Source of the DNA: an uncultured Acidobacteriota bacterium
GTDB lineage: Bacteria > Acidobacteriota > Vicinamibacteria > Vicinamibacterales > UBA2999
Assembly (NCBI GenBank): GCA_963734095.1
Contig: CAVTGK010000010.1
Span: 12,656-76,655 of the forward strand
DNA length: 64,000 nucleotides
Direction: 5' to 3'
The translations under genes and the position numbers were made by a program. Shown here piece after piece: positions 2,145 to 50,240 of the stretch (positions within the stretch are counted from its first letter, which is position 1; the number at the start of each line of letters is the position of its first letter). A model generated the notes under the pieces. The model was not told where the DNA came from and did not search any database. It was given only the letters and a program-made list of their open reading frames with translations.

Positions 2145-2196
2145 GCGCGGCAAAAGTCGTGCGTCGACGGCTGAGAAAGTGTGAGATCGTGTCCCC

Positions 2197-2739: not shown

Positions 2740-2755
2740 CCAATAGCGAGGCAAT

Positions 2756-4783
2756 ATGACAGGCAAGCAACGATCCGGCCTTCTGACCAGTGCGCTTCTC
2801 GTCGCTTCGCTTCCGCTCGCGGCGCAGCAGGCAACTGCGCCCACTCTCAGCCCCTCGCAGCGCGCGTCGCTTCAGGCCGTGGTCGCGGCCGTCGACCGGG
2901 TGAACGCGGCGACCGACACCGCTGGTGTCGATTGGCCCGTGCACGTCCTGCGCGCGTCCGATGGATCGCACTACGTGGCGTTTTCCCTGGCCGGCGTCAC
3001 CGGTCTCACCTCCGGGAAACCCCTGGTGCTGTATGTGCGGCTCGCGACCCGACGGGACGATCGGGTCGCCGGTGGACCCGTCGAACGATCGGCAGTCGCC
3101 GAGTGGCTCGCTGGTCAGCGCAGCGTCCTGCCGCGACCCGAGCGGGGCATCGCCTTCGGAGAGATGCCGACCTACGGCGCCGGCAGCGTGGCCTCGCGAG
3201 GTGTGACGACGCCGGGGCAAAACGTTGCCCTGTTGGAAATGGAGCGCGAGCGCGCCCGCGAGCGGCGGGAGGAACGAGAGCGCGAACGTAAAGCGACCCT
3301 GGAAGGTGAAGGGGTCCGCACGGCGCGCCCCCTCCTACCCTTCGAGGATTTCGACCTCGAGGCCGTCGTCGACACCGACTCCAGCGGTGCCGCCGTCGTC
3401 CGCCGCAGTCTGACGGCTGGGCCCGGCGACTACGTCCTGACCGTCGCGTGGCACGACAGCAGCAACAAGGACACGGACAAAGCCATCCGCGTGTTCCAGA
3501 AGAAGCTCGTTTTGCCGATTGCGTCGACTTCGGAATTCGGCCTGAGCAACGTCATCGTGGCCGACTCGGTGAGCGTCCGGACCCTGGCGCTCACCTCCGA
3601 GCAGCAATCGCGACATCCTTATTCGATCGGCACGACCGAAATCATCCCGGCCCGCGACACGATATTGACCAACCAGGAGCCGCTTGCGCTCGTCGTTCAA
3701 GTCATCAATCCGCGGGCCGCGCCCAACGGCAAGCCCGATGTCGCTGTGGGTTTTCGGATCTCGCGAGCGACAGCGACCGGGCAGGAATACGTTGGCGTCC
3801 TCGCGCCGCAGATCTACAACGAGACGACGCTCCCGGTGGACTTCGACGTGCTGAAGGGCCATCCGATCTTTGCTGCCGTCGAAATCCCCATGAGCACTTT
3901 CAAACGCGGGAACTACCGGGTGCGGATCATGGCTGACGATCGGCTGGGCGGCGTCAGCGCGACGACCGAGGCCACGTTCTCGGTCGTCGGCACACCCGCA
4001 GTGCTCCTGCGCGACGCGCCATCCGTGGCTCTCCCCTTCCGTCGGGACGCCATCCTCGAACCAGCGCTGCTCACGGCAATCGTCAATTCGCTGCGCCCGC
4101 CACAGCCCTCACCGGCGCTCACTGCGGCCCTGAATTCAGCGAGCGAGCGCCGGTTTGTCGACCTGCTACGCGGCGAGCCGGTGCGACCGGAGGAGGAAGC
4201 CACGCGAGCCACGCTGCGCGGACTCGCCCTTTATGCCCTTGGGGACACGTCGACGGCTATCGCGCTGCCGCTGCGGCAGGCCGCGCAGTCCGCGAGTACA
4301 TCGGCGGGGGCCCATGTGCTGCTGGGTGCGACGCACGCGCTCGAGGGCCGTGATCGGGACGCGTTGATCGCCTGGGACGCCGCGGTCGCCGCGGGACTCG
4401 ACGCCGGAGTTTTGAGCCCGTTCGTGATCGACGCGGCATTGCGGCTGGGCGATGTGGAACGCGCCAGCCAGCTGGCAACCGCGGCCCTCACGTCGCGCCC
4501 GTCGGATGGGGTTCTCATCCGGCGTGTTGCCGCATGCCATCTCGCCGGGAGTCGGCCGGCACCGGCGATCACGCTCCTGGACGCACATCTCGAACGGGAG
4601 CCGGGAGACCTCGACGCGCAGTGGCTGCGTCTGCACGCCCAATTCATGGATCTCGTGGCCACGGGAATGTCCAAGGCAGAGGCCAGCACGCGCGAGGCGT
4701 TCAAGCTGCATGCGGCTCGCTATGTCGAAGCAAAAGGGCGACACGCCATGCTGGCGACCGAATGGGCGAGCGTCGTGCCGTAG
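2756..4783 (+). CDS. hypothetical secreted protein with TPR-like C-terminus
   Basis: Intact 675-aa ORF. Signal peptide (LLTSALLVASLPLAAQQA), charged ERERARERREERERERK tract, Ala/Leu-rich helical-repeat C-terminal third. No family recognised. Confidence 0.6.
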   Translation: MTGKQRSGLLTSALLVASLPLAAQQATAPTLSPSQRASLQAVVAAVDRVNAATDTAGVDWPVHVLRASDGSHYVAFSLAGVTGLTSGKPLVLYVRLATRRDDRVAGGPVERSAVAEWLAGQRSVLPRPERGIAFGEMPTYGAGSVASRGVTTPGQNVALLEMERERARERREERERERKATLEGEGVRTARPLLPFEDFDLEAVVDTDSSGAAVVRRSLTAGPGDYVLTVAWHDSSNKDTDKAIRVFQKKLVLPIASTSEFGLSNVIVADSVSVRTLALTSEQQSRHPYSIGTTEIIPARDTILTNQEPLALVVQVINPRAAPNGKPDVAVGFRISRATATGQEYVGVLAPQIYNETTLPVDFDVLKGHPIFAAVEIPMSTFKRGNYRVRIMADDRLGGVSATTEATFSVVGTPAVLLRDAPSVALPFRRDAILEPALLTAIVNSLRPPQPSPALTAALNSASERRFVDLLRGEPVRPEEEATRATLRGLALYALGDTSTAIALPLRQAAQSASTSAGAHVLLGATHALEGRDRDALIAWDAAVAAGLDAGVLSPFVIDAALRLGDVERASQLATAALTSRPSDGVLIRRVAACHLAGSRPAPAITLLDAHLEREPGDLDAQWLRLHAQFMDLVATGMSKAEASTREAFKLHAARYVEAKGRHAMLATEWASVVP

Positions 4784-22934: not shown

Positions 22935-23329
22935 GCAGCGACCTGCGCGAAGACCTCGCGCGCCGCGTAGATGCCATCGAAGCCGGCTACGAGCTGATGT
23001 TGGCCTACGCGGCGCAGGGACTTCCCTCCGACACCATGGCCGCCAACAGCGGTCAACTTCGCGAGTACCTCCGCCGCTTCGACGAAGCCCTCACCGATCT
23101 CGCCGATCGCTATCGCGAGTTCGTCGTCAGCCAGGACCGGCTCGCGCCGGAGGCCGTCGAAGGGTTTCTCGACGTGCTGACCACCGACGCGCGCTCGGCG
23201 CAGGCCGGCTTGCGTCTGGTCATGGCGCAGCCCAGCATCAGCTCGCAGCTCGTGGACAATCTGAATGCGTCCATCCACGTGCGCGCACTGCTCACCGATA
23301 TCTTTCTGATTGACGAGGCGCTGAAGTAG
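22931..23329 (+). CDS. hypothetical helical protein, translationally coupled to the cytochrome b gene
   Basis: GTG 22931 overlaps TGA 22932-22934 (GTGA). 132 codons, coding-like composition, no recognised motif. Confidence 0.5.
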   Translation: MSSDLREDLARRVDAIEAGYELMLAYAAQGLPSDTMAANSGQLREYLRRFDEALTDLADRYREFVVSQDRLAPEAVEGFLDVLTTDARSAQAGLRLVMAQPSISSQLVDNLNASIHVRALLTDIFLIDEALK

Positions 23330-23332
23330 GCC

Positions 23333-23482
23333 TCGCCGCTTCGCGGCTCGGAGGGCGGCCGCCTGCGGCGCGGAGGGCGGCGCTTCGGCCGGAAGGCTGC
23401 TCGCTAACGCTCGCAGGTAGGCCGGCCATTCGGCCGGAGGGCCGGCGCTCGGCGAGGCGAAGCCGAGCCGCCTACCGGCACG
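23333..23482. repeat. GC-rich tandem-unit block (GGGCGGC.CTTCGG..GGA type), left arm of a split foldback
   Basis: Units CCGCTTCGCGGCTCGGA, GGGCGGCCGCCTGCGGCGCGGA, GGGCGGCGCTTCGGCCGGAA... start directly after stop 23329. Confidence 0.7.
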
Positions 23483-23855
23483 GCTTGACGTCGACGATCA
23501 AGGCCCGCAACTCGGTGGTTCCGATGTTGTCGATGCGATGAGCCATCGGTTCGCGCCAGGCGGTGTCGCCCTGCTTCACGGTCTGCTCCGCGCTTTGCCC
23601 GCCAAGTGGTGTCGAACGAATGCGGCCGTCGCTGAGGAAATGGTACGACGAATGTCTGGTGGCTGTGCAGGGGCTCGGTCTGGCCCGGCTTCAACGCGTA
23701 CTCCAGCACTCGAACACGATCGTTCTCGAGCCTCGTCCGATAGAGATCCGGAGAGACTGTCACAGCGTCCGGCGGAGCTGCGACGCGCGCGTTGCGATTG
23801 TCGATGCCGCGACACCAATCATGATCCCGAAAGCGAGGAGAAGCGTTGGTTTCAT
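23471..23855 (-). CDS. secreted cupin-domain protein; 2 frame shifts (about 23635, about 23790)
   Basis: MKPTLLLAFGIMIGVAASTIATRA / AAPPDAVTVSPDLYRTRLENDRVRVLEYALKPGQTEPLHSHQTFVVPF / LSDGRIRSTPLGGQSAEQTVKQGDTAWREPMAHRIDNIGTTELRALIVDVKPCR, read across three frames. Confidence 0.65.
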
Positions 23856-23877
23856 TTGGAGGCAAGTATAGGCTGGT

Positions 23878-24027
23878 CGTTCTACCAGCCCTTCGGCGAG
23901 CGTAAGCGAGCCGCCCACCGCGAGCGGAGCGAGCGGCCCTTCGGCGAAACGAAGCGAGCCGCCTATCCGTGAGCGAAGCGAACGGCCGTCCGCGAGCGCA
24001 GCGAGCGGCCCGTTAGCAGGACACGCA
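23878..24027. repeat. GC-rich tandem-unit block (GCGAGCGGCCC / AGCGAGCCGCC type), right arm of a split foldback
   Basis: About five units; their reverse complement (GGGCCGCTCGC..CGCGGA) belongs to the same family as 23333-23482 and 33535-33700. Ends before stop 24065(-). Confidence 0.7.
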
Positions 24028-25757: not shown

Positions 25758-27161
25758 TCAGGCGGTCGCGCGAGCCTCGACCGCATTCAAGTCGAGCGCA
25801 CGCGTGCTATCGCCGAATTGATCGATTTCAAGGCCGGTCATCTTGAGCACCGACAGCATGGCATTGGCCATTGGCGTGCCATCTGCGGTCTTGATGTGCA
25901 TGTGGCCCTTGAGCTTTCCGCCCGCGTGGCCCGCAAACAGCAGCGGGCAGCGCTTGTGGTTGTGCACATTCGAATTGCCCATCGGCGATCCGTAAATCAC
26001 CACCGAGTTTTCGAGCAGATTGCGCTCGCCATCAGCGGTCGCTTTCAGGCGATCGAGGAGGTACGGCAGCAGCCCGACGTGGTAGCGATTGATCTTCGCG
26101 AATTCCAGAATGCGCTCGTCGCGGTCCTGGTGGTGCGAAGCGATGTGGAAGCCGGTCGTGACGCCCGCCTCGCGATACACACGGTTCGAGACATCACGGC
26201 TCATCTTGAACGCGAACACGCGCGTGATGTCCGACGCAAAGGCAAGCGCCTGGAGATCGAACATCAGCTTGACGTGCTCTTCGTAGGAGTCGGGAACGCC
26301 GGCCGGCGCGCCCGGCAGTTCACGCTCTTCACCGCTGCGATTGAACGCCTCGACTTTCTGAATGCGACGTTCCACCTCTCGAACGTCCTCGAGATAGTCG
26401 GATAACCGAGCGCGATCGGCGGCGCCCAACGTGTTGTTGAGCCGACCCACCGAATCGGCCACCCAGTCGAGGATGCTTTGGTCTTTGCGACGACGCGCCG
26501 CGCGCTGCTCGGGCGTCGCGCCGACTCCGAACAACTGATCGAAGACCAGGCGCGGGTCGCGGATCATCGGCAGCGGCTCGCTTGGGGACGCCCAACTGAT
26601 CGAATCGGTGTAGGCGCAGGAATAACCGTAGAAGCATCCGCCCGCCTGATCCACGTTCTCGATGCAGAGTTGCATCGACGGGATGGGCGTCTCCGCTCCG
26701 AAGGCTTGGGCCACGAGCTGATCGAGCGACGTGCCCGCATGGAGGTCGGAGCCCTGCGTCTGACGTGGATGCGACTGCGTCAGGAACACGGCGGCGGATC
26801 GGAAGTGGTCCCCGCCGATTTCGGGCGGCGTGAAGGCTTCCGCGTTCCTCACGTCGGTGTTGCTGACAATCGTGATGTGACGTCGATACGCCTCCAGTGG
26901 ACTCAACACGCTGGAAGACACATCGAACTCCGACCCGACTTCCGCCGGCGACCACAGATTCTTCTGCTGGCCGAACGCCGTCGCGCCCGCCGAGCCGTGG
27001 ACCATCTCGATCGCAATCAGTCGTGGTCGCGCGGCGGGCGGTTGCGCCGCCAGACCACGCGTTGGCAGCATGGCTTCGAGCAGCGGAATCGAAACCGTGA
27101 CGCCCATGCCCTTCAGCACCGTCCGGCGCGAAATCGGTTGTCGTCGAATCAGCATGGTCAC
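25758..27161 (-). CDS. DUF1552 domain-containing protein (Tat leader)
   Basis: Intact 467-aa ORF. ISRRTVLKGMGVTVSIPLLEAMLP leader and the typical DUF1552 body. ATGA overlap with the upstream DUF1592 gene. Confidence 0.9.
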   Translation of the reverse strand: MTMLIRRQPISRRTVLKGMGVTVSIPLLEAMLPTRGLAAQPPAARPRLIAIEMVHGSAGATAFGQQKNLWSPAEVGSEFDVSSSVLSPLEAYRRHITIVSNTDVRNAEAFTPPEIGGDHFRSAAVFLTQSHPRQTQGSDLHAGTSLDQLVAQAFGAETPIPSMQLCIENVDQAGGCFYGYSCAYTDSISWASPSEPLPMIRDPRLVFDQLFGVGATPEQRAARRRKDQSILDWVADSVGRLNNTLGAADRARLSDYLEDVREVERRIQKVEAFNRSGEERELPGAPAGVPDSYEEHVKLMFDLQALAFASDITRVFAFKMSRDVSNRVYREAGVTTGFHIASHHQDRDERILEFAKINRYHVGLLPYLLDRLKATADGERNLLENSVVIYGSPMGNSNVHNHKRCPLLFAGHAGGKLKGHMHIKTADGTPMANAMLSVLKMTGLEIDQFGDSTRALDLNAVEARATA

Positions 27162-29632
27162 TCCGTGGTCGGCGCGCCACTGGTGGACTGAAAAGCGGCG
27201 CTGGCGACGATACCCAGCACGAACGACGAGAGCCGGTTTCCATTCTGGCCCGCTCGTTTCACGATCGCCCGCACAGTGGGCATATCAGATGCTTCCAATC
27301 GGCGGCCGAGCGCGTAGGTCATCAGCCGTTCGGTGAAACTGAGGAGCACCGCGTCCTCGTGTTTGAGGAGCGCCTCGCGCAAGCCGGCGGGCCCGTTCAT
27401 CTTGGTCCCGTCGTACAAGTCGCCGCTGGCATCAATCGGCACCTCATTGTCTTTGATCCGCCACTTCCCGGTGACGTCGAAATTGTCGAGGGCAAGGCCC
27501 AACGGATCGATCACTCGATGACACGACGTGCAGGCCGGATTCTTTCGATGCTCCTCCATCCGCTCACGCACGGACAGGAGCCTGCCCGGCGACCGCCGCT
27601 TTGGTGGCCTCGAATGCCGGCACATCGGCTGGCGGTGGCGGTGGCGGCGACCCGAGCAGCACTTCCATCACCCACTTGCCGCGCATCACCGGTGACGTGC
27701 GATCGGCGACCGAGGTCAACGTCAGGATGCTGCCGTGACCAAGAATGCCGCGGCGATAGTCGGGAACCGTGACCCGCTGAAAGGCTGGACCACTGACGTT
27801 CGGGATGCCGTAATGACGAGCGATGCGCTCGTTGACAAACGTGTAGTCGGCGGTGATCAGGTCGAGGACGCTGCGATCCTCACGCACGAGGCTGTCGAAG
27901 AAAAGCTCGGTTTCGCGTTTGAACGCCTGCCCCAACGAGTGATCGAAATACGGATACAACAGGGCGTCCGGCAACATCTGATCGACGTCGTTGAGCCGCA
28001 GCCACTGCGAGGCAAAACGAGTGGCGAGCGCCTCGGACCTCGGATCCGCCAGCATGCGCCGCACTTGCCTCTCGACCGCTCCTGGCGCGGTCAGCCGGCC
28101 GTCAGCCGCCAGTTGGAGCAACTCGGCATCGGGAGCGGCGCCCCAGAGGAAAAACGAGAGGCGCGATGCCAGCTCACGGTCGCGCAGCCGATAGGCCCGT
28201 CCGGCGGCCGCCACGGCCGGCACCGGCTCGACGCGGAAGAGGAACTGCGGGCTCGCGAGCATCGCTTCGATCGCCGACCCGACACCGGACTCGAACCCCC
28301 GCTCGCGGCGACCGTCCTCGTAGAACTGCAACAAGGCGGCGAAGTCGCTTTCGCGACACGGGACCGCGAAACGCCTGCGTCGCCAAACGCTGGATGATGC
28401 TGCGCGCGCACGGCATTTCCTCGTCGGGACTCGTCGGGCGACAAGTGAAGACCTTGCGACGACTTGCCGTCTCCGAGACACCAGTGGGCCGATAAGGACC
28501 CACGATGCTCAAGTCCTTCAGGTGCGGCAAGGTCGTGATTCCGAAGGCCACGCCGATCTGCGTATCGGCGAGCGTGTGCTCGATCGGCGCCAGCAGGTCG
28601 ATCACAGGTCCCTCGAATTGCTGCAGGAACGCCGCCGAGACGCGCTTGGCTCCGGCCGTAATGTGAATCGGCGCCGTCTTGAGCGTGACGCCCGTCGTGG
28701 CCTCTGTCATTCGCGGATCGATATCGAGGAGCGCCGACCGTGCACCGTCGATGGACAGCTCCAGCTTTTCTCCGGTCGTGGTTCCGCCAAACAAAACACC
28801 GCACGCGTTGCCATGCAGATCCATGCGGAAGACGTAATCGCCGTCGGCTGGAAACGTGTGCAGGACCGAGAGTCCCCCGCGCGTCCCGAGTGGGGCGCCC
28901 TCGGCACGACGCAGTTGCGAGGCGGTCTTGGCGACCTTGTAGTTAGCCTCGCTCGCCGAGGCCTCCGCGTCGCCGAGCGCCAGCATCGTGACCTTGCCGG
29001 CGGCGCGCAGATAACTCGACAGCAACGTCGGCGAGAACGTCTGGGCGTCGGCAATGTTGTCGAAACCGTCGCTGATCGTGTCGGCCGGCAAAAGTGCGGC
29101 GACGTCGATGTCGACATCGAGCAGGTCCTTGACCGCGCGCGCATACTCGGCGCGATTGAGCCGCTGGAAAGGCCGCCACCCCGGCGTGGGCCTGGCGGCT
29201 GCGGCCGCGTCGAGACGCCCCTCGAGCGCCGCCACCAGCGCAGTCAATGCTTCGGGTGCCGGGCGCTTGGCGCCCGGTGGCGGCATCATCCCAAGCCGTA
29301 GCTTTCGCACCATCTTCTCCGCGACGTCAGCGTGCTGCGCGGCCGTCGTCACGTCGAAAGAGGCCAGCGACACCCCCCCGGCGCGACCGCGCTCGCTGTG
29401 ACAAACGGCGCAGGACCTGTTTGACCGTGGCGGTTTGTGCCTCGGCCGCCGTTCGAGGCGATGGCGCGCTGGCCGCGGCAGCCAACGGGCGAACGTCTGA
29501 CTGTCGATGTGAGACGGCGGGGGTCGGCTTTTGTGTGCCCGGGGCAGCCGGCGGTTGCGCGCGACCGCTGGTACCGGTCAACCCGAGCGCAATGAGTGCG
29601 GTGACGAGAATTCCAGCGCTGGCTCGTCTCAT
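27158..29632 (-). CDS. DUF1592/DUF1588/DUF1585-family protein with N-terminal CxxCH haem motif; frame-disrupted (>=3 shifts)
   Basis: Pieces 29327-29722, 28174-29373, 27564-28481 and 27158-27625. A shifted reading near 29400 gives SCAVCHSERGRAGGVSLASFDV. FQRLNRAEYARAVKDLL; C-terminal CTSCHRVIDPLGLALDNFD (DUF1585). Confidence 0.85.
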
Positions 29633-29796
29633 GGGCAAAGGCGGGCGCTTCGAACGCCACCCGTAAACCCGCCAAAAAACGGGCTCTAGAAGTATAGTCG
29701 GTGGCGCCGTCCGAGTCGTCACGCGATATCTCCGCGTCGGGGATGCCGACCTGTTTCCGGCGCGTAATGGCTCGGCTGGGAAGGAGCCGCCACGTC

Positions 29797-33531
<3,735 letters not shown>

Positions 33532-33534
33532 AAG

Positions 33535-33700
33535 GCCGCTGGTCGCGGAGGCCGCTTCGCGGGAAGGCCGCTTCGCGGAGGGGCAGCTTCGCTGGAGGGC
33601 CGCTTCGCGGAAGGGCTGCTTCGCAGAAGGGCCGGCCTCGCTTCGCTCGGCTGGAAGGCCGCGCCTCCGGCGCGGAAGGGTCTCGAGCGCCCTCCCTGGC
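33535..33700. repeat. tandem GGCCGCTTCGCGGA(A/G)G-type units; left arm of a split foldback
   Basis: At least 5 units directly after the argG stop. 33630-33658 matches the reverse complement of 37904-37933 at 26/29 positions. Confidence 0.8.
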
Positions 33701-33934
33701 TCGTAGGTCGGGTCAGGCGTTCAGGGACGTTCCCACTCTTAGAGCGTGTAACAAAACCTCCGAAACATGCTCCTGGCGGCTACCGGTTAGCACGTCGTAG
33801 AGCCGAATTTTCATCTTTGTTGCCCGAGTTGCCGCGGACCTCACGTCCTGCAAACGCAAATCATCACGGCCGCGCCGGCAAACGGCGTCGCTGGTTCACC
33901 TGCGAGCATAGTCGAGGGAAAGGTCTACAACCGA

Positions 33935-36632
33935 TCATTGGTTCTCGGGCGTCACCACGTCCATGATCCAGATGTCGCCGAGATCGACGCTCCAGGTGAG
34001 GTACAGATCGCGTTCGCCAACGGCCAAGTCTAGGCTGCCCAAATTACCTTGCCTGCCTGAAAAACGTGTCACCCGCCGCTCCTTGCCGTCGGCGAGCGTG
34101 AATTCCCAAATGTCATTACACCCTCGCAGTCGGAACGTGCCGGGTGGAAAGCATGGGGGTTCGAAATAAACGCGCTTGCCATCTGGTGACCACCGGAAGA
34201 AATACGCAGGACCCTGAGTCACCCGTCGTGGAGGTCCCCCTGAGGGAGGCACCCACCATAGACGGTAGATGCCATCGTCAAGATTCGTAGAGAAAGCCAA
34301 CTGTTTCCCATCCGGGGACCATTGTGGAAAGAAACTCCATGGCGATCCCGTTACCACCTGGCTGACCTCGCCGCCCGTGGCGGGCATCACAAAGATGCCT
34401 CCTCCAGCCCTGGTGGAGGAGAACGCGATGTTCTGGTTGTCAGGAGACCATGAGGGGATACTGGTCCTCCCCTTCACCCGTGGTCAGCTGAACTGCCGGC
34501 CCTCCGTCTGCTGGGACCACCCAGATCTTGCGATCCCCACTTCTATAGGAAAAGAACGCGATCTGCTTTCCATCTGGCGATAGGCGTGGACCGAAATCCG
34601 GAGCTCGGTCGCTGGTTATCTGTCTCGGATCGTTCCCGTGAATCGGCAGGCTCCAGATGTTTTGAATCCCGCCTCGATCGGAGTCGACAAGCAGGTGTCC
34701 TGCGTCCGGCAGGAGATCGAGCTGGGTGATCCTCGCGTAGTCGAACGTGAGTTGCTCGGCGTCAGCCCAGACCGCCTCGCGATCTTCGCGAATGGGCACG
34801 CGCCACACGTTGGCCACGATGCGACCTTTCGAATAGGCCAACTTCCGCCCATCGGGAGTGAAGGCCGCCCGCCGCATGTCAATCCCCACGGTGATCGGCA
34901 CCGCCTCGCCTTCGGGCCGTCCGTCCGTCGAGATGTGTTGTTGCCACAGGTCCATGCTCCCTTTGCGGTTGGAGACGAAGAAGAGCGTGCGTCCGTCCCT
35001 GGACCACTTCGGGCTCCAATCGCTCGATATTCCTCCGGTGATGGAGAATGCTTGTGCGTCCGAGGCGCGCAGCAGCCAGATGCGCGAGGCCACCGATGCA
35101 TCGTTGGGGGCGCGCACGTAGGCGAAGAGGCTTCTGTCGGGGGACCAGCTCAGATCAAAGCGATTGCCTCCCCCGCCTGGAATCCGCATGCGACGCGACG
35201 CGCGGGTTCTCAGCGTCACGATTTCGATGAACGTCGCCTCCGGGATACACCGCGACGTACGCAAGCTCTGCCCCGTCCGTCGACCACGCTGGACTGGCAA
35301 ATGCCTGCACATCTGCAGATGCACGTGGCGACATCCGGGTCGCCTGCCCTCCGATCGCAGGGATCACATAGATGCCCCCGCCGTCTCGGTCCGACACAAA
35401 CGCGATCTGATTTCCGTCGGGCGACCAGGCCGGCTCTATGTCGAGTTCTTTGTGATCGGCGGTGAGGTTGACTGCAGGTCCTCCGGTCGGCTGTGCCACC
35501 CAGATATCCGCGTTGCCGCTCTGGTCCGAGTCGTACGCGATGCGTCCACCATCCGGCGACCACGTCGGATGATTCTCGAGACCGGCAGCGGACGTGACTT
35601 GGACCGGGTTCTCGACGCGAGGCACGATGACCTGCGGACGGTTTCGTTGACCTCAAGAGGCCGACGCCAACGAGGAGTAGTAGTCCAGCAGCAGCCACGA
35701 TCAGCAAGCCCACGTTCGTTGATGTCAGGCGAGTTTTTCGAATGGGTTGCGATGAGCCGAGAAGCTCTCCGGATTCGAGCTCTCGTCTGAGCTCGCTCAG
35801 CTCGTTCCGGATGTCGAGCGCGCTCTGGACGCGCTTCGAGACGTCTTTCGAAAGGCAGCGTCGCACTAACCTCGATAGCTCGCGAGGAATCCCCGAACGA
35901 ACCTCGGAAATTGACGGCGGGACATCCTTGATGATCGAGGAGATACGTCGGAAGGCGTGGGTCCCTCGAATGGCGGACGTCCCGTCAACATCTCATAGAA
36001 GACGATCCCCAGCGAGAAGATGTCGGAGCGCGCATCGATAGTGTCTCCACGCGCCTGCTCCGGAGACATGTACTTGCACGTGCCAACGATGACTCCCTGC
36101 TCGGTCTGTGCCGCCGTGAGGAGATTGCTGGCCGCGCCGGCCCCGGCGAGTCGGTCGCTGGCCTGTGCAAGGCCGAAGTCGAGCACTTTCACGCGCCCAT
36201 CGAGATCGACCATCACGTTTCCGGGCTTCAGATCGCGATGCACGATGCCCTGGGCGTGAGCGGCGGCGACGGCATCGGCAAGGGCGACCGCGATATCGAA
36301 AAACCTCTCCAGCGCGAACCCCTGCCTGGGCAAGAGCGCGGCGAGGGTGGCTCCCTTTACCAGTTCCATCGTGATGAAATGGACGCCGTCGACCGCTTCT
36401 ACCGAGTGAACCGTGACGATGTTGGGGTGATTGAGCGCAGCGATGGCCCGCGCTTCTCGTTCAAAACGCGCGCGACCCAATTCGCTGTCGGCCAGCTCCG
36501 GAGGCAGAATCTTGAGGGCAATTTCGCGATTCAGCTTCGTATCGCGCGCCCGATACACTTCGCCCATCCCGCCGGCCCCAGGACAGAGAGGATTTCGTAC
36601 GGTCCAAGGCGCGTGCCAGCGGACAGGGACAT
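33935..36632 (-). CDS. Ser/Thr protein kinase fused to TolB-like PD40/WD40 beta-propeller repeats; frame-disrupted (>=5 shifts)
   Basis: MSLSAGTRLGPYEILSVLG (shift in a C4 run at 36576-36579), then GGMGEVYRARD, HRDLKPGNVMV, DFGLA, YMSPEQ. A TM segment, then repeated WSPDG...IAF/LAF propeller blades down to the stop at 33935. Confidence 0.85.
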
Positions 36633-36711
36633 GAGAGTCGAGGGCGATTGTAGCGACGTTGCCCCCTTGCTGCAAAGAGAAAGGACACCCCCTCAGGCTC
36701 GCTGCCCAGCG

Positions 36712-37507
36712 CTTTCGCAGCGACTGCCAGCAAATCAGCGCGCACCCGAGCGAGAGGAACGCCTCGTGGATGTCGGCCCGCTTGTCATACCGCACGCGCA
36801 GGCGGCGAAACTGGTTGAGCCAGGCAAACGTCCGCTCCACGACCCACCGCCACCGGCCCAGGCCACTCCCGTGCGCGGTGCGACGCATGGCCAGCAAGGG
36901 CACGATGTGACGAGTCCGGAGACCGCGCCGAATGCGCGGCCGCGTCGTAGCCGCGATCCCCGAGCACACAGTCCGGCCGCTGCCGCGGTCGCCCCCGTTC
37001 GCCGTGCAGCGGGGGAATCGCATCCACCAACGCCAGGGCTTCTTGCGAGTCGTTCCGGTTCGCGCCGGTCAGGCGAACCGCGAGCGGCACGCCCCGCCCG
37101 TCGCAGATCAGATGGCGCTTGCTCCCGCGCTTGGCCCGATCGGTGGGATTCGGACCGGTCTGGTCACCGCCGTACACCGCGCGGATGGAACAACTGTCCA
37201 CGACCGCCCGCGACCAATCAATCTGGTCGTCGCGCGCGAGCCAATCCAGCAGCGCAAAGTGGATCAGATCCCACACGCCCGCCTGTTGCCAATCGCGCAG
37301 GCGACGCCAGCACGTCATCCCCGACCCGCACCCGAGTTCCTGCGGGAGCATCTGCCAGGGAATACCGCTGCGAAGGACGAAGACAATGCCGGTGAGGCAC
37401 GCGCGATCCGAGACGCGCGGCCGCCCGCCTCTTGGCCGACGTGGTGGAATCGGCAAGAACGGTTCGACAAGATCCCACAACGGATCTGGAAGCAGCGCGG
37501 CGGCCAT
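36712..37507 (-). CDS. IS5-family DDE transposase; 1 frame shift near 36935, 3' end unclear
   Basis: MAAALLPDPLWDLVEPFLP..., GIPWQMLP, DSCSIRA, VLGDRGYDAAA then (shift) IRRGLRTRHIVPLLA..GSGLGRWRWVVERTFAWLNQFRRLRVRYDKRADIHEAFLSLGCALICWQSL. No stop is seen before the frame runs into the kinase gene. Confidence 0.85.
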
Positions 37508-37844
37508 ACCTGTTCACGCTACTTCGCCGACGAGGATCAGGTTTCGGAGGTTTTGTTACACGCTCTTAGGGCCTAACACTGGGTGTCACGCGCGATATTG
37601 CAGGCGAACGCCGCTGGAACCCTCGTCAAAATTTCTTCGCTGCTCGTCGTAAGCGGTCGGTACTCTTGAACGGCACTGGCGTACAGCAGGCCCGACAACC
37701 CCCAGCCGCTTGAAATAGTGCGAGCACGGCACTCGAAATACGTCGCCCGGCCCAAACAAGAGAAGTGCTGATGCAGACCCCACGAGACTTCCCCACAGTG
37801 TTGCTACCCAGACTTTAGGATTACGGGACCGGGGATAAAGCGCA

Positions 37845-38003
37845 AGCTGCTTCGCGAAAGGCCGGCCTCACTGTGTTCGGCCTGACAGGCCAAAGCCTAG
37901 AGACCCCTCCAGCCGAGCGACGCGAGGCTGGCCTTCCGCGGAGCGGCCTTCCGCGAGCGGCAGCGAGCGGCCCTCCGTGAAACGGCCCTCTGCGCCGAAG
38001 GCG
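37845..38003. repeat. inverted copy of the GGCCGCTTCGCGGA-type block; right arm of a split foldback
   Basis: GGCCTTCCGCGGAGCGGCCTTCCGCGAGCGGCAGCGAGCGGCCCTCCG... It also has its own short left arm: GCTTCGCGAAAGGCCGGCCTC pairs with GAGGCTGGCCTTCCGCGGAGC. Ends just before stop 38008(-). Confidence 0.8.
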
Positions 38004-38007
38004 CGGC

Positions 38008-38424
38008 CTACTGTGGTTTCCACTTCGCCGTGACCCGACCGACTTCTCCACCCGGCGCCCAAATCACGAGCACCTTCGCGCCCTTCGGGCCGGCTTTATG
38101 GCGAACTTGATCGGTCGATCGAATGCTGGCCACGGTCCCTGGCGTCAGCTTCACCGGGTTGCCGTTGATCACTTGCTCCATATCTCCCTCGAGGAGATAG
38201 AACGTCTCGGTCACGGCATGACGGTGTTCGCCCGAGTCGCTGTTCGGGGCCAGGGTCAACTCCGCCACCTCGACCTCGGTCCCACCAAGCGACGCAGCGT
38301 CAACGAGCACCTTCAATTGCGCGCCGCCGGGACTGACAAAAGCCTTTGCCGACGCCGACTGCTCGCGTGCCACCAGCGTTTGCACGATGACATTGCACCC
38401 ACGAGCACGACTCCAACGACACAT
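38008..38424 (-). CDS. cupin-domain protein (secreted?)
   Basis: Intact 138-aa ORF with the cupin core SGEHRHAVTETFYLLEGDMEQVINGNPVKLTPG. Confidence 0.7.
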   Translation of the reverse strand: MCRWSRARGCNVIVQTLVAREQSASAKAFVSPGGAQLKVLVDAASLGGTEVEVAELTLAPNSDSGEHRHAVTETFYLLEGDMEQVINGNPVKLTPGTVASIRSTDQVRHKAGPKGAKVLVIWAPGGEVGRVTAKWKPQ

Positions 38425-38449
38425 CTTCGCGCCATTTCTTAACTCCTCA

Positions 38450-38570
38450 TTCAGTTACAAGTTCCAAGTCCAAATTCTGCGGCGCCTTTCGGCGCCGCAG
38501 CGCTCCATCAACTACGAAACTTCTAACTCAACTCTGAACTTGTAATTGTAACCTGTAACTATCGCGATCG
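38450..38570. repeat. foldback palindrome, GTTACAAG / CTTGTAAC units, with embedded GC hairpin
   Basis: Left CAGTTACAAGTTCCAAGTCC. Right GAACTTGTAATTGTAACCTGTAACT. The same unit recurs at 58927-59003. Confidence 0.8.
38477..38500 (-). terminator. perfect 10-bp GC hairpin downstream of ilvD (candidate terminator)
   Basis: CTGCGGCGCC-tttc-GGCGCCGCAG. On the minus strand it is followed by AATTTGG, a weak U tract. Confidence 0.45.
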
Positions 38571-38575
38571 CACCT

Positions 38576-40262
38576 TTAATCAGTCACTGCCCCCAGGCTG
38601 GCACTCGTCACGAGACGAGCGTACTTGGCCAGCACGCCGCGCGTGTAGCGCGGCTTCGGCACCTTCCACTTCCTTTGACGAGCCTTGATCTCGCTGGCCG
38701 GCACGTCCAGCGTCAGCGTCCTCGCTCGAGCGTCGATCGCGATCGCGTCGCCGTTCTTGACGATGGCAAGCGGGCCGCCCGCAACGGCTTCGGGCGTGAT
38801 GTGGCCGACGACGAAGCCGTGCGTGCCGCCGCTGAAGCGGCCGTCCGTGATCAGCGCCACGTCCTTGCCCAGCCCCCGCCCATGACCGCGCTGGTCGGCG
38901 AGAGCATCTCGCGCATGCCCGGTCCGCCGCGCGGTCCTTCGTAGCGGATGACGACCACGTGTCCTTTCTTCACGCGGCCACGAGAATCGCCTCGAGCGCG
39001 TCCTCCTCGCGATCGAAGACGACCGCCTTGCCCGTGAATCGCTCGCCTTCCTTGCCGCTGATTTTCGCCACCGCGCCTTCCGGCGCGAGGTTGCCGTAGA
39101 GAATGACGAGATGACTGTCCGCTTTGATCGGGCGATCGAAAGCGGCCGGACGATGTCCTGACCGTTTGGGATACTGCACGCGTCGTCTCGAAGGTTTTCC
39201 GCAAGCGTTCGCCCGGTCACGGTCAGCGCATCGCCATGCAGCAGCCCCTCCTCCAGCAGCATCTTCATCAGCGGCGTCAGGCCGCCGATGCTGCACGAGT
39301 TCGGCCATCTCGATACCGGCCGCTCGGCTTCAGATCGGCCAGCACCGGCACGCGCCTGCCGATCCGCGTGAAGTCGTCGATGGTCAGCTTCACGCCCGCC
39401 GCATGGGCAATCGCGAGCAGATGCAGCACCGCGTTGGTCGAACCGCCGAGGGCGATGACGGCCGTAATGGCGTTCTCGAAGGCCTTCTTCGTCAGGATGT
39501 CGCGCGGGCGGATGCCCGCGTCTCGAGCAGACTGCATCACCGCCGCGCCGGCGCGCGCGCAGTCATCGCGCTTGTCCTTCGAGATTGCGGCCTGCGCCGA
39601 GCTGTTGGGCAGACTCATGCCGAGCGCCTCGATGGCGGAGGCCATCGTGTTCGCCGTGTACATTCCGCCGCAGGACCCGGCCCGGGAAACGCGCGCGACT
39701 CGAGATCCGCGAGATCCGCGTCGCTCAGAGCGCCCGCCGCGTGCTGCCCCACCGCTTCGAACACCGAGACGATGTCGACCGGCTTTTCTCGCCACGTGCC
39801 CGGCAAGAATCGTGCCGCCATAGACGAAGACTGCCGGGCGATTGAGGCGCGCCATCGCCATCACGCAGCCGGGCATGTTCTTGTCGCAGCCGCCAATCGC
39901 CACCAGGCCATCGAAGCCCTCGCCGCCCACGACCGTCTCGATCGAGTCGGCGATCACCTCGCGCGACACCAGCGAATACTTCATCCCCTCGGTGCCCATC
40001 GAGATGCCGTCGGACACCGTGATGGTGTTGAAAATCACGGCCTTGCCGCCGGCCGCGTCGACGCCGCCGGCCGCGTGCCGCGCCAGCTCGTCGATATGCA
40101 TGTTGCAGGGCGTCACCTCGCTCCAGGTCGAGCAGATCCCGACCTGCGGTTTGGCGAAATCCTCGCGACGTAAAGCCGACCGCGTGCAGCATCGCGCGGC
40201 CGGCGGCGCGCGCGCAGGACCGTCGAGGACCGTGGATGAGTGCGACCGCTTCTGTTGACCAT
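38576..40262 (-). CDS. ilvD: dihydroxy-acid dehydratase; heavily frame-disrupted (>=7 shifts)
   Basis: [136 protein letters not shown]. Spread over three frames. Confidence 0.9.
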
Positions 40263-40291
40263 AGCCTGACGCGGGAAGTCTACACTTCTTC

Positions 40292-40677
40292 CATGGCGCG
40301 ACAGTCGTCCGGCTCGACGTGTGGCTCGACGTCGCGTGTCTGTTCAAAACCCGGTCGGAGGCGCAGAAGGAGTGCAAGGTCGGCCGCGTCAGCGTGAACG
40401 GCGTGGTCGCCAAGCCTCATCGTGACCTGCGCATCGGCGACAACTAATCATCTCGCGACCCGCGGGCCGTCGACAGATCATCGTGGTACGCGCCCTCGCC
40501 GACAGACACGTTGCAAAGGCTGAGGCGCGCGCGCTGTACGAGGATCGCACGCCGCCAGCAACGGCCGAGGAAGTCGAGATGCGGCGGTTGGAGCGGGTGT
40601 TCAAGGCGACCACCCATGGCACCCGACTGGATCGACGCGATCAACGTGAAGTCGCCCGCCGGAAGTGGACGACCTAG
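40292..40677 (+). CDS. S4-domain RNA-binding protein (Hsp15-like); 2 frame shifts
   Basis: [45 protein letters not shown], then [33 protein letters not shown]... up to the stop at 40677. Confidence 0.55.
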
Positions 40678-40714
40678 CGCCGACACAGATGTGGCTTGCG
40701 TCTAAGATACGACC

Positions 40715-43435
40715 GTGGCCCGCCGAACCATCGTCTTAGTCGTCTTCGCTCTCCTCTTCTTCGTCCTTCCATCCACGACGACGTTTCTCGTGGATTGGCT
40801 GTGGTTCGGCGAAGTGGGGTATCGGCCGGTATTCGTGACCGCGCTGACGGCGCGCGCGGCCATCGGCGCGGCGTGTGTTTGTCGCTCGCTTCCTGTGGTG
40901 GCGCGCACCTTCGCCACGCGCTCAACGCGTCCAGCGGCGCGCCCGCGTCGTTCACCACGCGGGAAGGCTTCACGATTGTGCTGCCGACGCGCGATCAGTT
41001 GCGCCCGCTGGCGCTCCTGGCCGCCGCGGCCGCGCCGCTGCTGCTCGCGCTGTTTGCTGCGTCGGAGTGGCTGACGCTCCTCCAGTGGTGGCACCAGACG
41101 CCATTTCCGGCTGCGGATCCCATCCTCGGCTACAACGCCGCGTTCTACATCTTCACGCTGCCGCTGCTCGAGATCGTGCGCGGCATGGGGCTAGCGCTCG
41201 TCGTGCTCGCCGCCATCGGTTCGGCGGCGGTCTACGTCTTTGCGGGCGAGCTGGCGCTGACGCCGTTCGGTCTGCGCATGGCGCCCAGCGTGCGACGGCA
41301 TGGCGCGGTGCTCGCGGCCGCTTTGTTCGTGGTGCTCGCCTCGGCGCGTGGCTCGATCAACCGCGCGCATGGTCACGGCGTCGGGCATCATTCAGGGCGC
41401 GAGCTACACCGACGTGCACGCGCGCATGCCGGCGGCGCTGGCACTGGCCGCCGCGGCAGCGATCGGCGTGGTGCTGTCGTTGCTGCTACGCGACTGGATC
41501 GCGCGCCGTGGGCGCTCGTCGCCGCCGCCGGCGCTCTACGCGGTCGTGCTGCTCGGTGGCGGACTCTACGCGCACGTTCATGCAGCGGTTCGTCGTCGTC
41601 GCCCAACGAACAGGCGCGCGAGACGCCGTATATCGCGCACAACATCGCCGCCACGCGCCAGGGCGTTCGCGCTCGACCGCATCGAGGAACGCGAGCTGAC
41701 CGGTGATGCCGAGCTCACGCGCGCGGACGTCGAGCGCAACCGCGAGACGCTCGAGAACGTGCGGCTCTGGGATCATCAGCCGCTGCTCGAGACGTTCGGA
41801 CAGATTCAGGAGATCCGCACGTACTACGACTTCATCTCGGTCGACAACGACCGCTACGAACTCGACGGCCGAACGCGCCAGGTGATGCTGTCGGTGCGCG
41901 AGCTGAATCCAGCGGCGCTGCCGAACCGCACGTGGATCAACGAACGGCTCGTGTTCACGCACGGTCACGGCTTGACCCTCGGACCGGTCAATCAGGTGGA
42001 CCGGAAGGCCTGCCGGTGCTGTTCATCCGCGACCTGCCACCGGTGTCGACCGTCAATCTCGCAGGTGACGCAGCCGAGCATCTATTTCGGCGAGCTGTCG
42101 AACGAATACGTCATCGCCCGCACTCGGGCGCGCGAGTTCCACTACCCGAAAGGCGAGGACAACGTCTATGCCGACTACGACGGCCGCGGCGGCATTCCAG
42201 CGTCGTCGCTTCTCCGCAGAAGCTGCTGTTCGCCGTACACTTCCGCGCGTATCAGATCCTGCTGAGCGACGACATCACGACTGAGAGCCGACTGATGTTC
42301 GATCGGCAGATTCGCAGCGCGTCGCGAAGATCGCGCCGTTCCTCAGCTACGACAACGATCCGTATCCGGTGGTCGACGAGGGCCGCATCTTCTGGATCCA
42401 GGACGCGTACACGACCTCGATCGCGCTATCCCGTACTCGACGGCCGCCGGCCGACAACATCAACTACATCCGCAATCGGTCAAGGTCGTCATCGATGCGT
42501 ACCACGGCACGGTGACGTTTTATCTGGCCGAACCGAGCGATCCGATCATCCAGACGCTCGCGAGGATGTTCCCGACGCTGCTCCGGCCGCTGACGGAAAT
42601 GCCGGCCGGGCTGCGGCGGCACATGCGCTATCCCGAAGGCATCTTCAACCTGCAGGCGCCGTGTACTCGACGTATCACATGACGAACCCGGCGGTCTTCT
42701 ACAACAAGGAAGATCAGTGGGAGGTCCCGGCGATCGATCGCGGCACCGACGAGACGTGCGGATGGAGCCGTACTACACCATCATGAGGCTGCCGGGCGAG
42801 TCAGCCGCGCCGAGTTCATCCAGATGCTGCCGTTCACGCCGCGGCGCCGCGACAACCTGGCATCGTGGATGGTGGCGCGCAGCGACGGCGAGCATTACGG
42901 TCAGTTGCTGGTCTTCCAGTTTCCGAAGCAGAAGCTGGTGTTCGGTCCGCGACAGGTGGTGGCGCGCATCAATCAGGACCAGGTGATCTCGCCGCAGATC
43001 ACGCTGTGGAACCAGCAGGGGTCGGAGGTGATTCAGGGCACGCTGATGGTGATTCCGATCGAAGAATCGCTGATCTACGTCCGGCCGCTGTACCTGCGTG
43101 CGCAGGCGGGCCGCATTCCCGAACTCACGCGAGTCATCGTCGCCTATCAGAACCAGATCGTGATGGAGCGCACGCTCGACGCCGGGCTGGCGCGCTTGTT
43201 TGGCGCCGTGCCGCAGCCTGGCCGCCTGGCGCACCGACCGCGCCGGCGCACCGGCGCACCGAGGCACCGGCGGAACCTGCGCGACCGCGCCGCACCGGCG
43301 GCACGCCGGAGGCAACGGAACTCGCCGCCGAAGCGCGCGCCGTCGTACGACCGCGCAATCGCCGCGCAAAAAGCCGGCGATTGGGCGAAATACGGCGAGG
43401 AGATCCGGCGCCTCGGCGAAATCCTCGGCGCATGA
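40715..43435 (+). CDS. UPF0182 family membrane protein; heavily frame-disrupted (>=10 shifts)
   Basis: [164 protein letters not shown]. Confidence 0.85.
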
Positions 43436-44693
43436 AGACAGCCTTGACCGTCGAGTGCTCAGAGCTCGACGGTCAGTCGGCGCCGGTGTCTTCGGCACCT
43501 GGTGCGCCTGGCGGTTTCTCGCGGAGCGCGGCCATCGCGTCACGCTGATCGACGCGTACGGCCCGGCGAACCCGCGCGCGAGCTCCGCCGATCACTCGCG
43601 CGTCATCCGCTGCGGCTACGGCGCCGATGCGATCTATTCGCGATGGGCGCAGCGCATTCCGACGACTGGCAGTGGCTGTCGCGCGAACGCGGACGCGAGC
43701 TCGTTGACCACATCCGGCGCGCTGTTCATGGGCGAGCCGGGCAACGCCTACATCGCTCACACCAGCGAGACGCTGGCAGGCGCTGGGATCGGCGCGGAGC
43801 TGCTCGAGCCGGCGGAGTCTGGCGCATCGCTTCCCGCAGATCGCCATCGACGGCCTCGGCGCTGTCGCTGTTCGAACCAGAGGCGGGAGTGATCCGCGCG
43901 CGCGCGGCGGTGCAGGCGCTCGCGACGCTCGCGCAGACGCGAGCCGAACGTCGACTATCGCAGGCACGGCCGTCGCAGCCGCTGGACGAGTCGCGCGAGT
44001 CGCCACGCGTTCGTCGAATCGGCCGGCGAGCGTCATCGAAGCCGACCTGTATGTGCTGGCCTGCGGTCCCTGGCTGCCCGGCGTTCTTCCGCTCGCCGTC
44101 GGCAGTCGATTGCGGCCGACGCGGCAAGAGGTGCTGTACTTCGGCGTTCCGCCCGGCGATCGGCGCTTCTCGATCCCGCGACTTGCCGGTCTGGATCGAC
44201 TTCGCCGCGGGCTTCTATGGCGTGCCCGACCTCGACGCGCGAGGGTTCAAGGTCGGCATCGATCGCCATGGGCCGCCGATCGATCCGGATCGAGCCGACC
44301 GCGTCGTGGACCCGCAGGTCGTCGGAAGACACGCGCGACTGGATGGCGCGGCGCTTCCCGGCGTTAGCCGACGCCCCACTCGTCGACGCGCGCGTCTGTC
44401 AGTACGAAAACACGCACGACCGGCGACTTCATCATCGACCGTCATCCGGCCTGGTCGAACGTGTGGATCGTCGGCGGCGGCTCGGGCCACGGCTTCAAGC
44501 ACGGCCCGCGGTCGGCCGTTATGTCGCGGCGTTGATTGCCGGCGATGCAACGCCCCAGCCGCGATTCGCGCTCGCGTCGAAGACCACGAAGCGCGCGATC
44601 GGTGTATTGAAGAGGGCACAGGGCACAGGGCGTCAGGGCTCAGGGCCCGCGCTTAGCCTGACCTGCCCTGTGCCCTACGCCCTGTGCCCTTAG
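43432..44693 (+). CDS. FAD-dependent oxidoreductase (DAO/sarcosine-oxidase-like); heavily frame-disrupted, 3' end uncertain
   Basis: ATGA overlap with the UPF0182 stop. [29 protein letters not shown] (dinucleotide fold), [36 protein letters not shown], the ...HGFKHGP-type C-terminal region. The last codons run into the 44603 repeat. Confidence 0.7.
44603..44689. repeat. foldback palindrome, GGGCACAG / CTGTGCCC units
   Basis: GGGCACAGGGCACAGGGCGTCAGGGCTCAGGGC ... GCCTGACCTGCCCTGTGCCCTACGCCCTGTGCCC. Lies between convergent genes. Confidence 0.9.
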
Positions 44694-49524: not shown

Positions 49525-49593
49525 AGCTCCAGGGTTCCAGGGTTCCAGGGTTCCAAGGTTCCAAGGTTCTAGGTTCTGGGTTCCAGGGTTCAG
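49525..49593. repeat. tandem GGTTCCA(G/A)G units; left arm of the cassette enclosing the four-helix-bundle gene
   Basis: About 9 units starting 2 nt after the moaA stop. Confidence 0.9.
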
Positions 49594-49734
49594 TGTCTGT
49601 TGGCGATCGCAGAAAGTGAGACTGCACGCAGGCCTGAATCGATCACAAATTTCCAACGAGAACGTGACGAAGCTTCGATATCGCTGATCCTGCACGAGAT
49701 TCATCGTGGCCGCCTGCTTGCACGCGAGTGTCTC

Positions 49735-50118
49735 ATGGCTGGCCTTCGCGACTTTCGGGACTTCGCCGCCTGGCAGCGTGCCGAGGAACTTCGCATGCTG
49801 GTTGAGGAGTTCTTGGCTCGGCCTGGCCTGAGGGTTCGCTTTCGCCGTGCACAACAACTAAGCGACGCTGCGGCGTCCGCGCCGAGGAACATCGCTGAAG
49901 GTTTTGGTCGATTCAAGCCGAAACAGTTCGCACAGTTCGTCAGAATTGCGAAGGGTTCGGAGACCGAAGTTCTCAACATCCTCATCGAGGCGCAAAAGGC
50001 CGGATTGCTTTCTAATCCGGACTTCACACGCTACGAAATCTGTACCCGACGCGCTATTGGAACCGCGGTTGGCCTAATTCGCTACCTCGAAGGCGCCGAT
50101 GAACCCGGCCAGGAATAA
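49735..50118 (+). CDS. four-helix-bundle protein (23S rRNA intervening-sequence protein / Avd family)
   Basis: FRDFAAWQRAEELRMLV, QLSDAAASAPRNIAEGFGR, FAQFVRIAKGSETEVLN match the family consensus. An upstream in-frame extension to 49600 is unlikely to be translated. Confidence 0.75.
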   Translation: MAGLRDFRDFAAWQRAEELRMLVEEFLARPGLRVRFRRAQQLSDAAASAPRNIAEGFGRFKPKQFAQFVRIAKGSETEVLNILIEAQKAGLLSNPDFTRYEICTRRAIGTAVGLIRYLEGADEPGQE

Positions 50119-50140
50119 CACGAACAGCGGACGGAGCCGC

Positions 50141-50240
50141 GGAACCTTGGAACCTGGAACTTTGGAACTCTGGAACTTTGGAACCGTGGAACTTTGGAAC
50201 CGTGGAACTTTGGAACCGTGGAACCGTGGAACCTTGGAAC
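50141..50240. repeat. tandem (T)GGAACC units; right arm of the cassette
   Basis: About 13 units (GGAACCTTGGAACCTGGAACTTTGGAACTCTGGAACTTTGGAACCGTGGAAC...), complementary to 49525-49593. Ends 11 nt before stop 50252(-). Confidence 0.9.

Follow-up and report, generated by a model that had tools for sequence, protein, structure and literature searches.

How two hairpin arrays at the end of argG and of a convergent cupin gene came to be parted by about 4.2 kb of other DNA is the question raised by a locus in an uncultured Acidobacteriota bacterium. The locus lies in a window of 64,000 nt, the whole stretch of DNA analysed here (assembly GCA_963734095.1, contig CAVTGK010000010.1). G000 denotes the genome of the window, G001, G005, G007, G008 and G010 denote relatives, and C numbers denote contigs. 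A preliminary description had taken the two arrays for the arms of one foldback with an insertion sequence (IS) and its kinase gene as cargo in the loop. According to the explanation favoured here, the locus probably results from gain or loss of DNA at an array unit in a fast-evolving gene-end spacer that resembles repetitive extragenic palindromic (REP) sequences, combined with an ordinary insertion of an IS5-type transporter IS (tIS). The array-bearing spacer is unusual while the event is fairly ordinary, being made up of known kinds of process without a new mechanism.

The argG-cupin junction and its two arrays

The gene argG (argininosuccinate synthase; Pfam PF00764, Arginosuc_synth, and PF20979, Arginosuc_syn_C) occupies 32164-33531 on the plus strand, with its stop codon at 33529-33531. 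It is convergent with a Cupin_2 gene (PF07883) located at 38008-38424 on the minus strand, whose orthologues adjoin argG in G005, G007, G008 and in metagenome contigs. The left array (33532-33640, plus strand) consists of about 6.5 head-to-tail 16-nt units of the type GGCCGCTTCGCGGAAG, each of which is a small hairpin in argG-sense. Tandem Repeats Finder (TRF) reported a period of 16, 6.6 copies and the consensus GAAGGGCCGCTTCGCG for 33530-33634, directly 3' of the argG stop codon. The array is followed by a long-type unit termed X (GGCCGGCCTCGCTTCGCTCGGCTGGAAGG; 33630-33658, plus strand) and by a last unit, the hairpin GCCGCGCC-TCCG-GCGCGG (33657-33679, plus strand), which has a UNCG-type loop in argG-sense RNA as read from the sequence and family-level matches at G005:C3 and G000:C11. 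Including these terminal units the left block extends over 33535-33679, all in plus orientation.

The right array (37905-38007, minus strand) comprises X' and about five units in cupin-sense, the last of which (GCGCC-GAAG-GCGC) abuts the cupin stop codon. Coordinates, TRF and inverted pairs thus confirm what had been described as a convergent junction with opposed blocks of a 16-nt unit. Likewise, the match of 33630-33658 to the reverse complement of 37904-37933 at 26 of 29 positions was recovered as 37905-37933 (29 nt, 90%), i.e. as the complementarity of X and X'. Further inverted pairs of 31 nt each were found between 33562-33592 and 37922-37952 (87%) and between 33594-33624 and 37922-37952 (84%). 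Terminator-like sites, defined as a GC-rich hairpin plus a T-run, were present in neither arm; the sole site in 33400-38100 lies inside the kinase gene.

The junction in relatives

The nearest relative is G005, whose argG is 99.5% identical at the nucleotide level without indels and whose cupin gene is 99.4% identical over its first 333 nt. In an exact-protein look-up for population variants, G005 was also the sole return. The argG-cupin spacer of G005 is 195 nt long and contains four plus units, GGCCGGCCTCACTGTG...CAGGCCAAAGCCTGAGAC, X' and inverted units, so that both blocks are contiguous. It folds as a single long hairpin with a minimum free energy of -127.9 kcal/mol (z -5.8; none of 200 shuffles was as stable). 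The left array of G000 is colinear with the four-unit array of G005, and its right array is near-identical to that of G005 except for one additional 15-nt unit.

Inspection of the junction in other relatives, which the preliminary description had proposed, revealed shorter spacers. In G007 the junction holds one 20-nt hairpin. Two inverted units are present in G008 and in one metagenome contig. In two further contigs the spacer measures 27-35 nt, and for G008 and the metagenome contigs together the range is 27-65 nt. None of the relatives that share argG-cupin synteny, namely G005, G007, G008 and three metagenome contigs, has the 4.2-kb island. Arms were found without the island, as in G005, while the island was never found without arms.

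Spacer size among near relatives therefore ranges from 20 nt through 195 nt to 4.5 kb, with 4.2 kb of DNA gained or lost at a repeat unit, and unit number varies and shifts very fast among relatives. With flanking genes that are 99.4-99.5% identical, the locus offers a before/after pair for an odd repeat-hairpin spacer of this acidobacterial lineage and shows the pace at which such a spacer changes.

Bounds and content of the G000-specific segment

By alignment, the window up to 33640 joined to the window from 37871 onwards corresponds to the G005 sequence. The extra DNA in G000 amounts to 4,230 nt, which exceeds the length of the IS. Its bounds are formed by a direct repeat of an array unit, not by a target duplication. 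Copy 1 (GCTGCTTCGCAGAAGGGCCGGCCTC; 33615-33640, plus strand) marks the left bound, and copy 2 (GCTGCTTCGCGAAAGGCCGGCCTC; 37846-37870, plus strand), which corresponds to the innermost left-arm unit in G005, the right bound. Both were identified by the direct-repeat families D4 and D5 and by alignment with G005; they have about 25 nt in common, with three differences. As the segment bound lies inside a repeat unit, recombination between units and not transposition is indicated, and the sequence points to an origin of the segment by recombination at repeat units, either gained in G000 or lost in G005.

The position of the break also bears on the view that the cargo sits in the loop. It lies 15-40 nt short of the apex, within the left arm, and the window retains the apex and loop of G005 unbroken at about 37885-37904; the cargo thus does not occupy the loop. 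From 37846 on, the right block is colinear with G005, beginning at the last left-arm unit of the latter. A residual inner foldback (37846-37950) is formed by a plus unit with a degenerate X copy (37846-37891), the loop (about 37885-37904), and X' with inverted units, in an arrangement colinear with the G005 apex. When the RNA of 37840-38010 was folded, a value of -98.1 kcal/mol (z -2.6) was obtained, i.e. the right block alone is a small foldback.

Besides the IS, the segment contains two family units on the left (the remainder of X and the hairpin, 33641-33679), one on the right (37846-37870), and orphan DNA. The latter comprises a left part of 59 nt (33680-33738), which matches relatives in nothing beyond family units and has no Rfam hit, and a right part of 277 nt (37569-37845) with a GC content of 58% (0.54/0.66/0.54 by phase). 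The unassigned sequence, earlier put at about 45 nt and about 275 nt, was found at 33701-33741 (about 41 nt) and 37566-37845 (about 280 nt). In total, orphan non-coding DNA amounts to about 378 nt. Neither Rfam (E <= 1) nor Pfam gave a hit for it, searches of 25 relatives and of 400 genomes of the order found no match, and within G000 itself a second site was found for neither the orphan DNA nor the segment ends. A decayed gene or RNA was considered as its source and rejected, as Rfam and Pfam hits, coding periodicity and matches in relatives were all lacking.

An IS5-family transporter IS with a kinase passenger

The IS spans 33742-37565 (3,824 bp, minus strand) and is bounded by inverted repeats of 25 bp without a mismatch (GAGCGTGTAACAAAACCTCCGAAAC; 33742-33766 and 37541-37565). 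In an exact inverted-repeat search they matched at 25 of 25 positions and could be extended to 37 nt at 92%. Directly outside them the target-site duplication TTA is read at 33739-33741 (left copy) and 37566-37568 (right copy). The transposase gene (36694-37507, minus strand) codes for an IS5-family DDE transposase (Pfam DUF4096 and DDE_Tnp_1), which in intact relatives is one open reading frame (ORF) of 272 aa. With NCBIfam model NF033580 (transpos_IS5_3; cut-off 110) the window copy scored 168.9 bits and the intact copy in G008:C8 244.6 bits; the two are 93% identical in amino acid sequence over residues 1-191.

The passenger gene (33935-36633, minus strand) codes for a Ser/Thr protein kinase (Pfam Pkinase, 1.4e-42) with a transmembrane segment and a PD40 (TolB-like) beta-propeller. 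In G000 it is spread over three frames (colinear tblastn high-scoring pairs in frames -1, -2 and -3), compared with intact homologues of about 860-890 aa. Decay of kinase and transposase to pseudogenes had been considered and was withdrawn, since the frame changes (at least five in the kinase, one or two in the transposase) are uninformative given the indels of the assembly. A sigma-70-like, promoter-like site (TTTGCA-18-TACAAT; 36647-36676, minus strand), identified by consensus match alone, is located between the end of the transposase and the start of the kinase, and the passenger kinase may have its own promoter. Its nearest homologue (83% nucleotide identity) occurs in the metagenome-assembled genome (MAG) MFD06229.bin.2.32, without IS ends within 6 kb; the relatives reach only about 51% amino acid identity.

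The IS/kinase unit is present in a single copy in the G000 assembly. Four copies, each with both inverted repeats and a T[TA]A duplication and all with different flanks, were found in relatives: in G008:C10 (3,948 bp, TAA, kinase-PD40 passenger), in G005:C5 (4,472 bp, TTA, kinase passenger), in G008:C8 (2,556 bp, TAA, PEMT and DUF6197 passengers) and in G001:C5 (1,672 bp, TAA, no passenger identified). For a sixth copy, in G010:C20, the repeat on the transposase side was found and a kinase lies next to it; the far repeat was not found. The transposases of the other copies are 71-93% identical to that of the window, the passenger kinase domains only about 50%, which suggests passenger exchange or repeated capture beside a conserved kinase 5' end: in G005 and G010, nucleotide similarity runs on past the transposase and covers about the first 130 nt of the kinase.

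The element is therefore an IS5-family tIS, as the layout of inverted repeat, transposase, passenger and inverted repeat recurs in relatives. In contrast to a composite transposon it has one transposase gene, and its distal end consists of the bare inverted repeat and 168 nt up to the kinase stop codon. A tIS is an IS derivative that carries passenger genes, as defined in PMC9330008 citing the ISfinder authors. The present element resembles this type in that one transposase and one or more unrelated passengers lie within a single pair of inverted repeats, in that the duplication flanks the whole unit, and in that five copies of 1.7-4.5 kb share this organisation; it differs in its passengers, which are Ser/Thr kinase-PD40 propeller genes and, in one copy, PEMT and DUF6197. 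An IS5-family tIS with a kinase passenger is not known to have been described, although no exhaustive search was made. Within the IS5 family, members of the IS1031 group are 0.85-1.05 kb long, end in GAG, generate a 3-bp TNA duplication and contain one ORF. GAG ends, a 3-bp T[TA]A duplication and, in intact copies, a single ORF of 272 aa are likewise seen here, but the elements measure 1.7-4.5 kb owing to their passengers. The IS1031 group is a candidate subgroup for this IS, on a match of ends and duplication.

Target choice of the IS

Target sites of the type T[TA]A occur at a density of 2.6 per kb in the window. Neither arm contains any, nor does the G005 spacer, while six are found in the 378 nt of orphan DNA, five of them in its right part in addition to the duplicated site. 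The IS hence inserted into the sole target-bearing DNA between argG and the cupin gene. As T[TA]A is confined to the orphan DNA, the latter would already have been there when the IS arrived. The question raised earlier, whether the target preference of the IS5 family explains the site, is thereby answered in the affirmative.

A different view is that the loops of foldback palindromes are preferred landing sites and general insertion targets, and that the whole island entered such a loop. It draws on the location of the IS between two inverted arrays and on two copies in G008. For the copy in G008:C8 the target is a TAA right in the loop of a heptamer foldback, the second of a tandem pair, and the flanking arms are complementary at 27 of 33 positions; the copy in G008:C10 has another heptamer foldback at a distance of about 40 nt. 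Moreover, REP-type palindromes are documented as IS targets (Tobes and Pareja 2006, PMC1525189; among others ISPpu9/ISPpu10, ISPsy8 and ISRm22). However, the copy in G005:C5 has no foldback at its flanks and that in G010:C20 lies beside a plain hairpin. At the present locus the break relative to G005 leaves the apex intact, the target duplication is situated in orphan DNA that G005 lacks altogether, and a G005-type junction offers no T[TA]A. Six copies are too few for statistics, and support for loops as insertion targets is limited: the G008:C8 copy agrees with that part of the preliminary description, the present IS, in orphan DNA and not in a loop, does not. As an account of this island the loop-target view is unlikely. 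The simple explanation suffices that T[TA]A is rare in a genome of 65% GC and concentrated in spacer loops.

The G008:C8 region (176000-186000, local 1005-3800) contains two tandem foldbacks with heptamer arms CAGTTTC/CAGTTAT (also given as CAGTTTC/GAACTGG).

The comparison with insertions into REP sequences and bacterial interspersed mosaic elements (BIMEs) extends to the setting, an IS among repeated palindromic units that are clustered in the spacer of convergent genes, with a second member of the IS family in a foldback loop. In contrast to those insertions, the IS here lies in orphan DNA between arrays and not in a unit. The REP-specific ISs of PMC1525189 recognise REP itself, whereas the present one is a DDE element of the IS5 family with a plain T[TA]A target.

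Hairpin arrays at gene ends

The hairpin units are extragenic, short imperfect palindromes of 11-30 nt, and arrays start at stop codons. A BLAST-based census of G000 yielded 37 oriented arrays. All nine inverted pairs among them have the order plus then minus. Of the 37 arrays, 20 directly follow the stop codon of a sense-oriented ORF of 100 aa or more, whereas two have such an ORF end on their antisense side alone; several arrays are solitary at gene 3' ends. The census replaced an exact-unit search (up to three mismatches), which had given 295 hits against about 170 expected from shuffles, a modest excess. Similarly, the stop-adjacent long-ORF test took the place of a codon-usage gene caller that had assigned 75% as coding and made wrong calls near 23000.

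Local alignment of the left arm (33535-33700) with the reverse complement of 37845-38003 gave a score of 85, compared with 45 in direct orientation and 21.9 +/- 3.5 (maximum 36) for 300 dinucleotide shuffles. Equivalent scores were obtained with unrelated family copies, i.e. 96 (C62), 77 and 70 (C43) and 74 (C26) for the left arm and 81 (C26) for the right arm. By the refuting condition set in the preliminary description, the arms are not specifically related to each other. The notion of one foldback that was split is upheld as far as the contiguous blocks of G005 are concerned, but not with respect to the arms, which align no better with each other (85) than with unrelated copies (96, 81 and 77). 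Since each array is in the sense of its own gene and the genes are convergent, the arrays are mutually complementary and the foldback would be a by-product.

In sense RNA, many hairpins with UUCG-, UCCG- or UGCG-type loops can be read from the sequence. Because of these loops the arrays might act at the RNA level, as terminators or in 3'-end protection.

The window contains other genes between opposed arrays, and three convergent-junction palindromes had been grouped together as carriers of cargo. Their contents are unlike each other. At 23333-24027 the enclosed gene is an ordinary small cupin gene (23471-23855) followed by a hairpin unit of its own, and the right array belongs to a co-directional upstream gene; at 49525-50240 it is a four-helix-bundle gene, and the repeat unit is a different one. 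The orphan DNA showed no similarity to these cupin and four-helix-bundle genes. Genes between opposed arrays are thus not all cargo in a loop: as arrays trail gene ends in sense, any small gene or insertion will look enclosed.

About 24 kb past the end of the window, at G000:C10:100990-101760, units of the GC-rich family of the argG-cupin junction form a plus and then a minus array, the latter abutting a minus-strand stop codon. The gene between these arrays codes for a protein of about 130 aa that is of the four-helix-bundle or 23S rRNA intervening sequence (IVS) type, which makes this locus, besides 49525-50240, the second of its kind on the contig.

The family differs from REP/BIME systems in its low copy number, with about 37 array loci in 5.56 Mb, in its head-to-tail arrangement, and in stems that vary by unit (CCGC/GCGG, CCAC/GTGG, GCGCC/GGCGC and others). 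A search for REP-associated tyrosine transposases (RAYT; PF01797) in the 60.6% complete assembly returned one match, an N-terminally truncated Y1_Tnp fragment (G000:C43:14037-14291) without family units beside it. For this incomplete assembly a REP/RAYT system was set aside as improbable, this IS200/RAYT-type fragment being the only candidate and not flanked by units. The fragment lies directly downstream of a CBS-domain-like gene. Eukaryotic foldback (FB) transposons share long inverted arms of short tandem repeats, sometimes with DNA between them. Unlike those of FB transposons, the present arms abut stop codons, stand alone at gene ends and are present in a sister genome that lacks the cargo; no target duplication flanks them on the outside, and they show no sign of transposition.

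Proposed course of events

At the start of the proposed course, argG and the cupin gene are each followed by their own array of GC-rich hairpin units, oriented in the sense of the gene. Where contiguous, as in G005, the two arrays can fold into one long hairpin. The 4,230-nt segment in the left arm would have been gained in G000 or lost in G005 via recombination between units. The IS5-family tIS would then have inserted into the orphan DNA by ordinary cut-and-paste or copy-and-paste DDE transposition, duplicating TTA; the order of the two events, first the segment and then the IS, is inferred. Each gene would have kept a working proximal array, so that the insertion was presumably tolerated. 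Two processes that had been merged can now be told apart, namely recombination at repeat units and plain transposition to T[TA]A by an IS5-family element whose passenger is a kinase gene.

Several points weigh against this explanation. Gain in G000 and loss in G005 are not separable, as both yield the same hybrid repeat. The left array alone is no more stable on folding than shuffles (z -0.3). The association of arrays with gene ends rests on a crude ORF criterion, and the G000 assembly is error-prone, so that single-base details of the repeats are unreliable. An attempt to polarise gain and loss from the hybrid 25-nt repeat was abandoned, both scenarios predicting the same pattern and the single-base differences being within assembly error.

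Two other explanations assign the arrays a more active part. In the first, gene-end arrays would serve as recombination or attachment sites, at which segments are captured and moved from one junction to another by recombination between units, and as preferred landing pads for IS5-type tIS, with the 25-nt direct repeat as an integration scar; this is quite unlikely. Candidate segments would then be the 378 nt of orphan DNA, the IVS-type genes (G000:C10:100990-101760 and 49525-50240) and the cupin gene at 23471-23855. In the second, the arms would move with the cargo, the segment being a cassette that is bounded by family units and integrates through recombination between units, like a foldback-type or IVS-like cassette. 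Family units do lie at both ends of the segment, flanked by the direct repeat as after Campbell-type integration, and the array family encloses a four-helix-bundle gene at G000:C10:100990-101760. However, no source of the orphan DNA or of the segment ends was found in the 25 relatives, the 400 genomes of the order or G000, apart from the IS transposase, which comes with ends of its own, recombinases are lacking, and a deletion in G005 between two repeats fits the same facts. Joint movement of arms and cargo, as suggested earlier, also conflicts with the inverted repeats and TTA duplication of the IS itself, with its occurrence in other contexts elsewhere, and with arms that exist without cargo. 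The cassette is accordingly very unlikely, and recombination between units followed by insertion of the tIS is retained as the favoured explanation.

Assembly quality and neighbouring sequence

G000 is a low-quality MAG with 60.6% completeness at 5.56 Mb, the incompleteness probably reflecting indel errors. Relative to G005, nine single-base indels were counted in 7.3 kb of conserved genes upstream and 108 gap openings in 5.4 kb downstream, and both ilvD and an S9 peptidase gene are split in the window and intact in G005. Any frameshift in the window should be treated as a possible assembly error, whereas such errors leave the architecture on the kilobase scale untouched, and with it the inverted repeats and the target duplication. 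That the island was mis-joined at the junction via repeated units is extremely unlikely despite the many single-base indels of this MAG, because the repeat copies, with about 25 nt in common and three differences, are too little to mislead an assembler, the target duplication is clean and inside unique DNA, and both flanks are unique and continuous.

Many single-base indels relative to G005 occur in conserved genes across 26200-33531 and 38579-43928 of the window; indels at 30150 and 30292 cut the S9 peptidase short, and ilvD is split at about 39270. Identity to G005 is 98-99.5% over 26200-38340, including argG and the 3' part of the cupin gene, and about 89% from ilvD on, with the break at 38340-38579. 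This break near the cupin 5' end could be the boundary of a recombination tract or a shift in local assembly quality. Metagenome contig Ga0247830_10174360, from a close relative, has its end precisely at the stop codon of the cupin gene, the point at which the hairpin array would start, in keeping with a tendency of short-read assemblies to break within such arrays.

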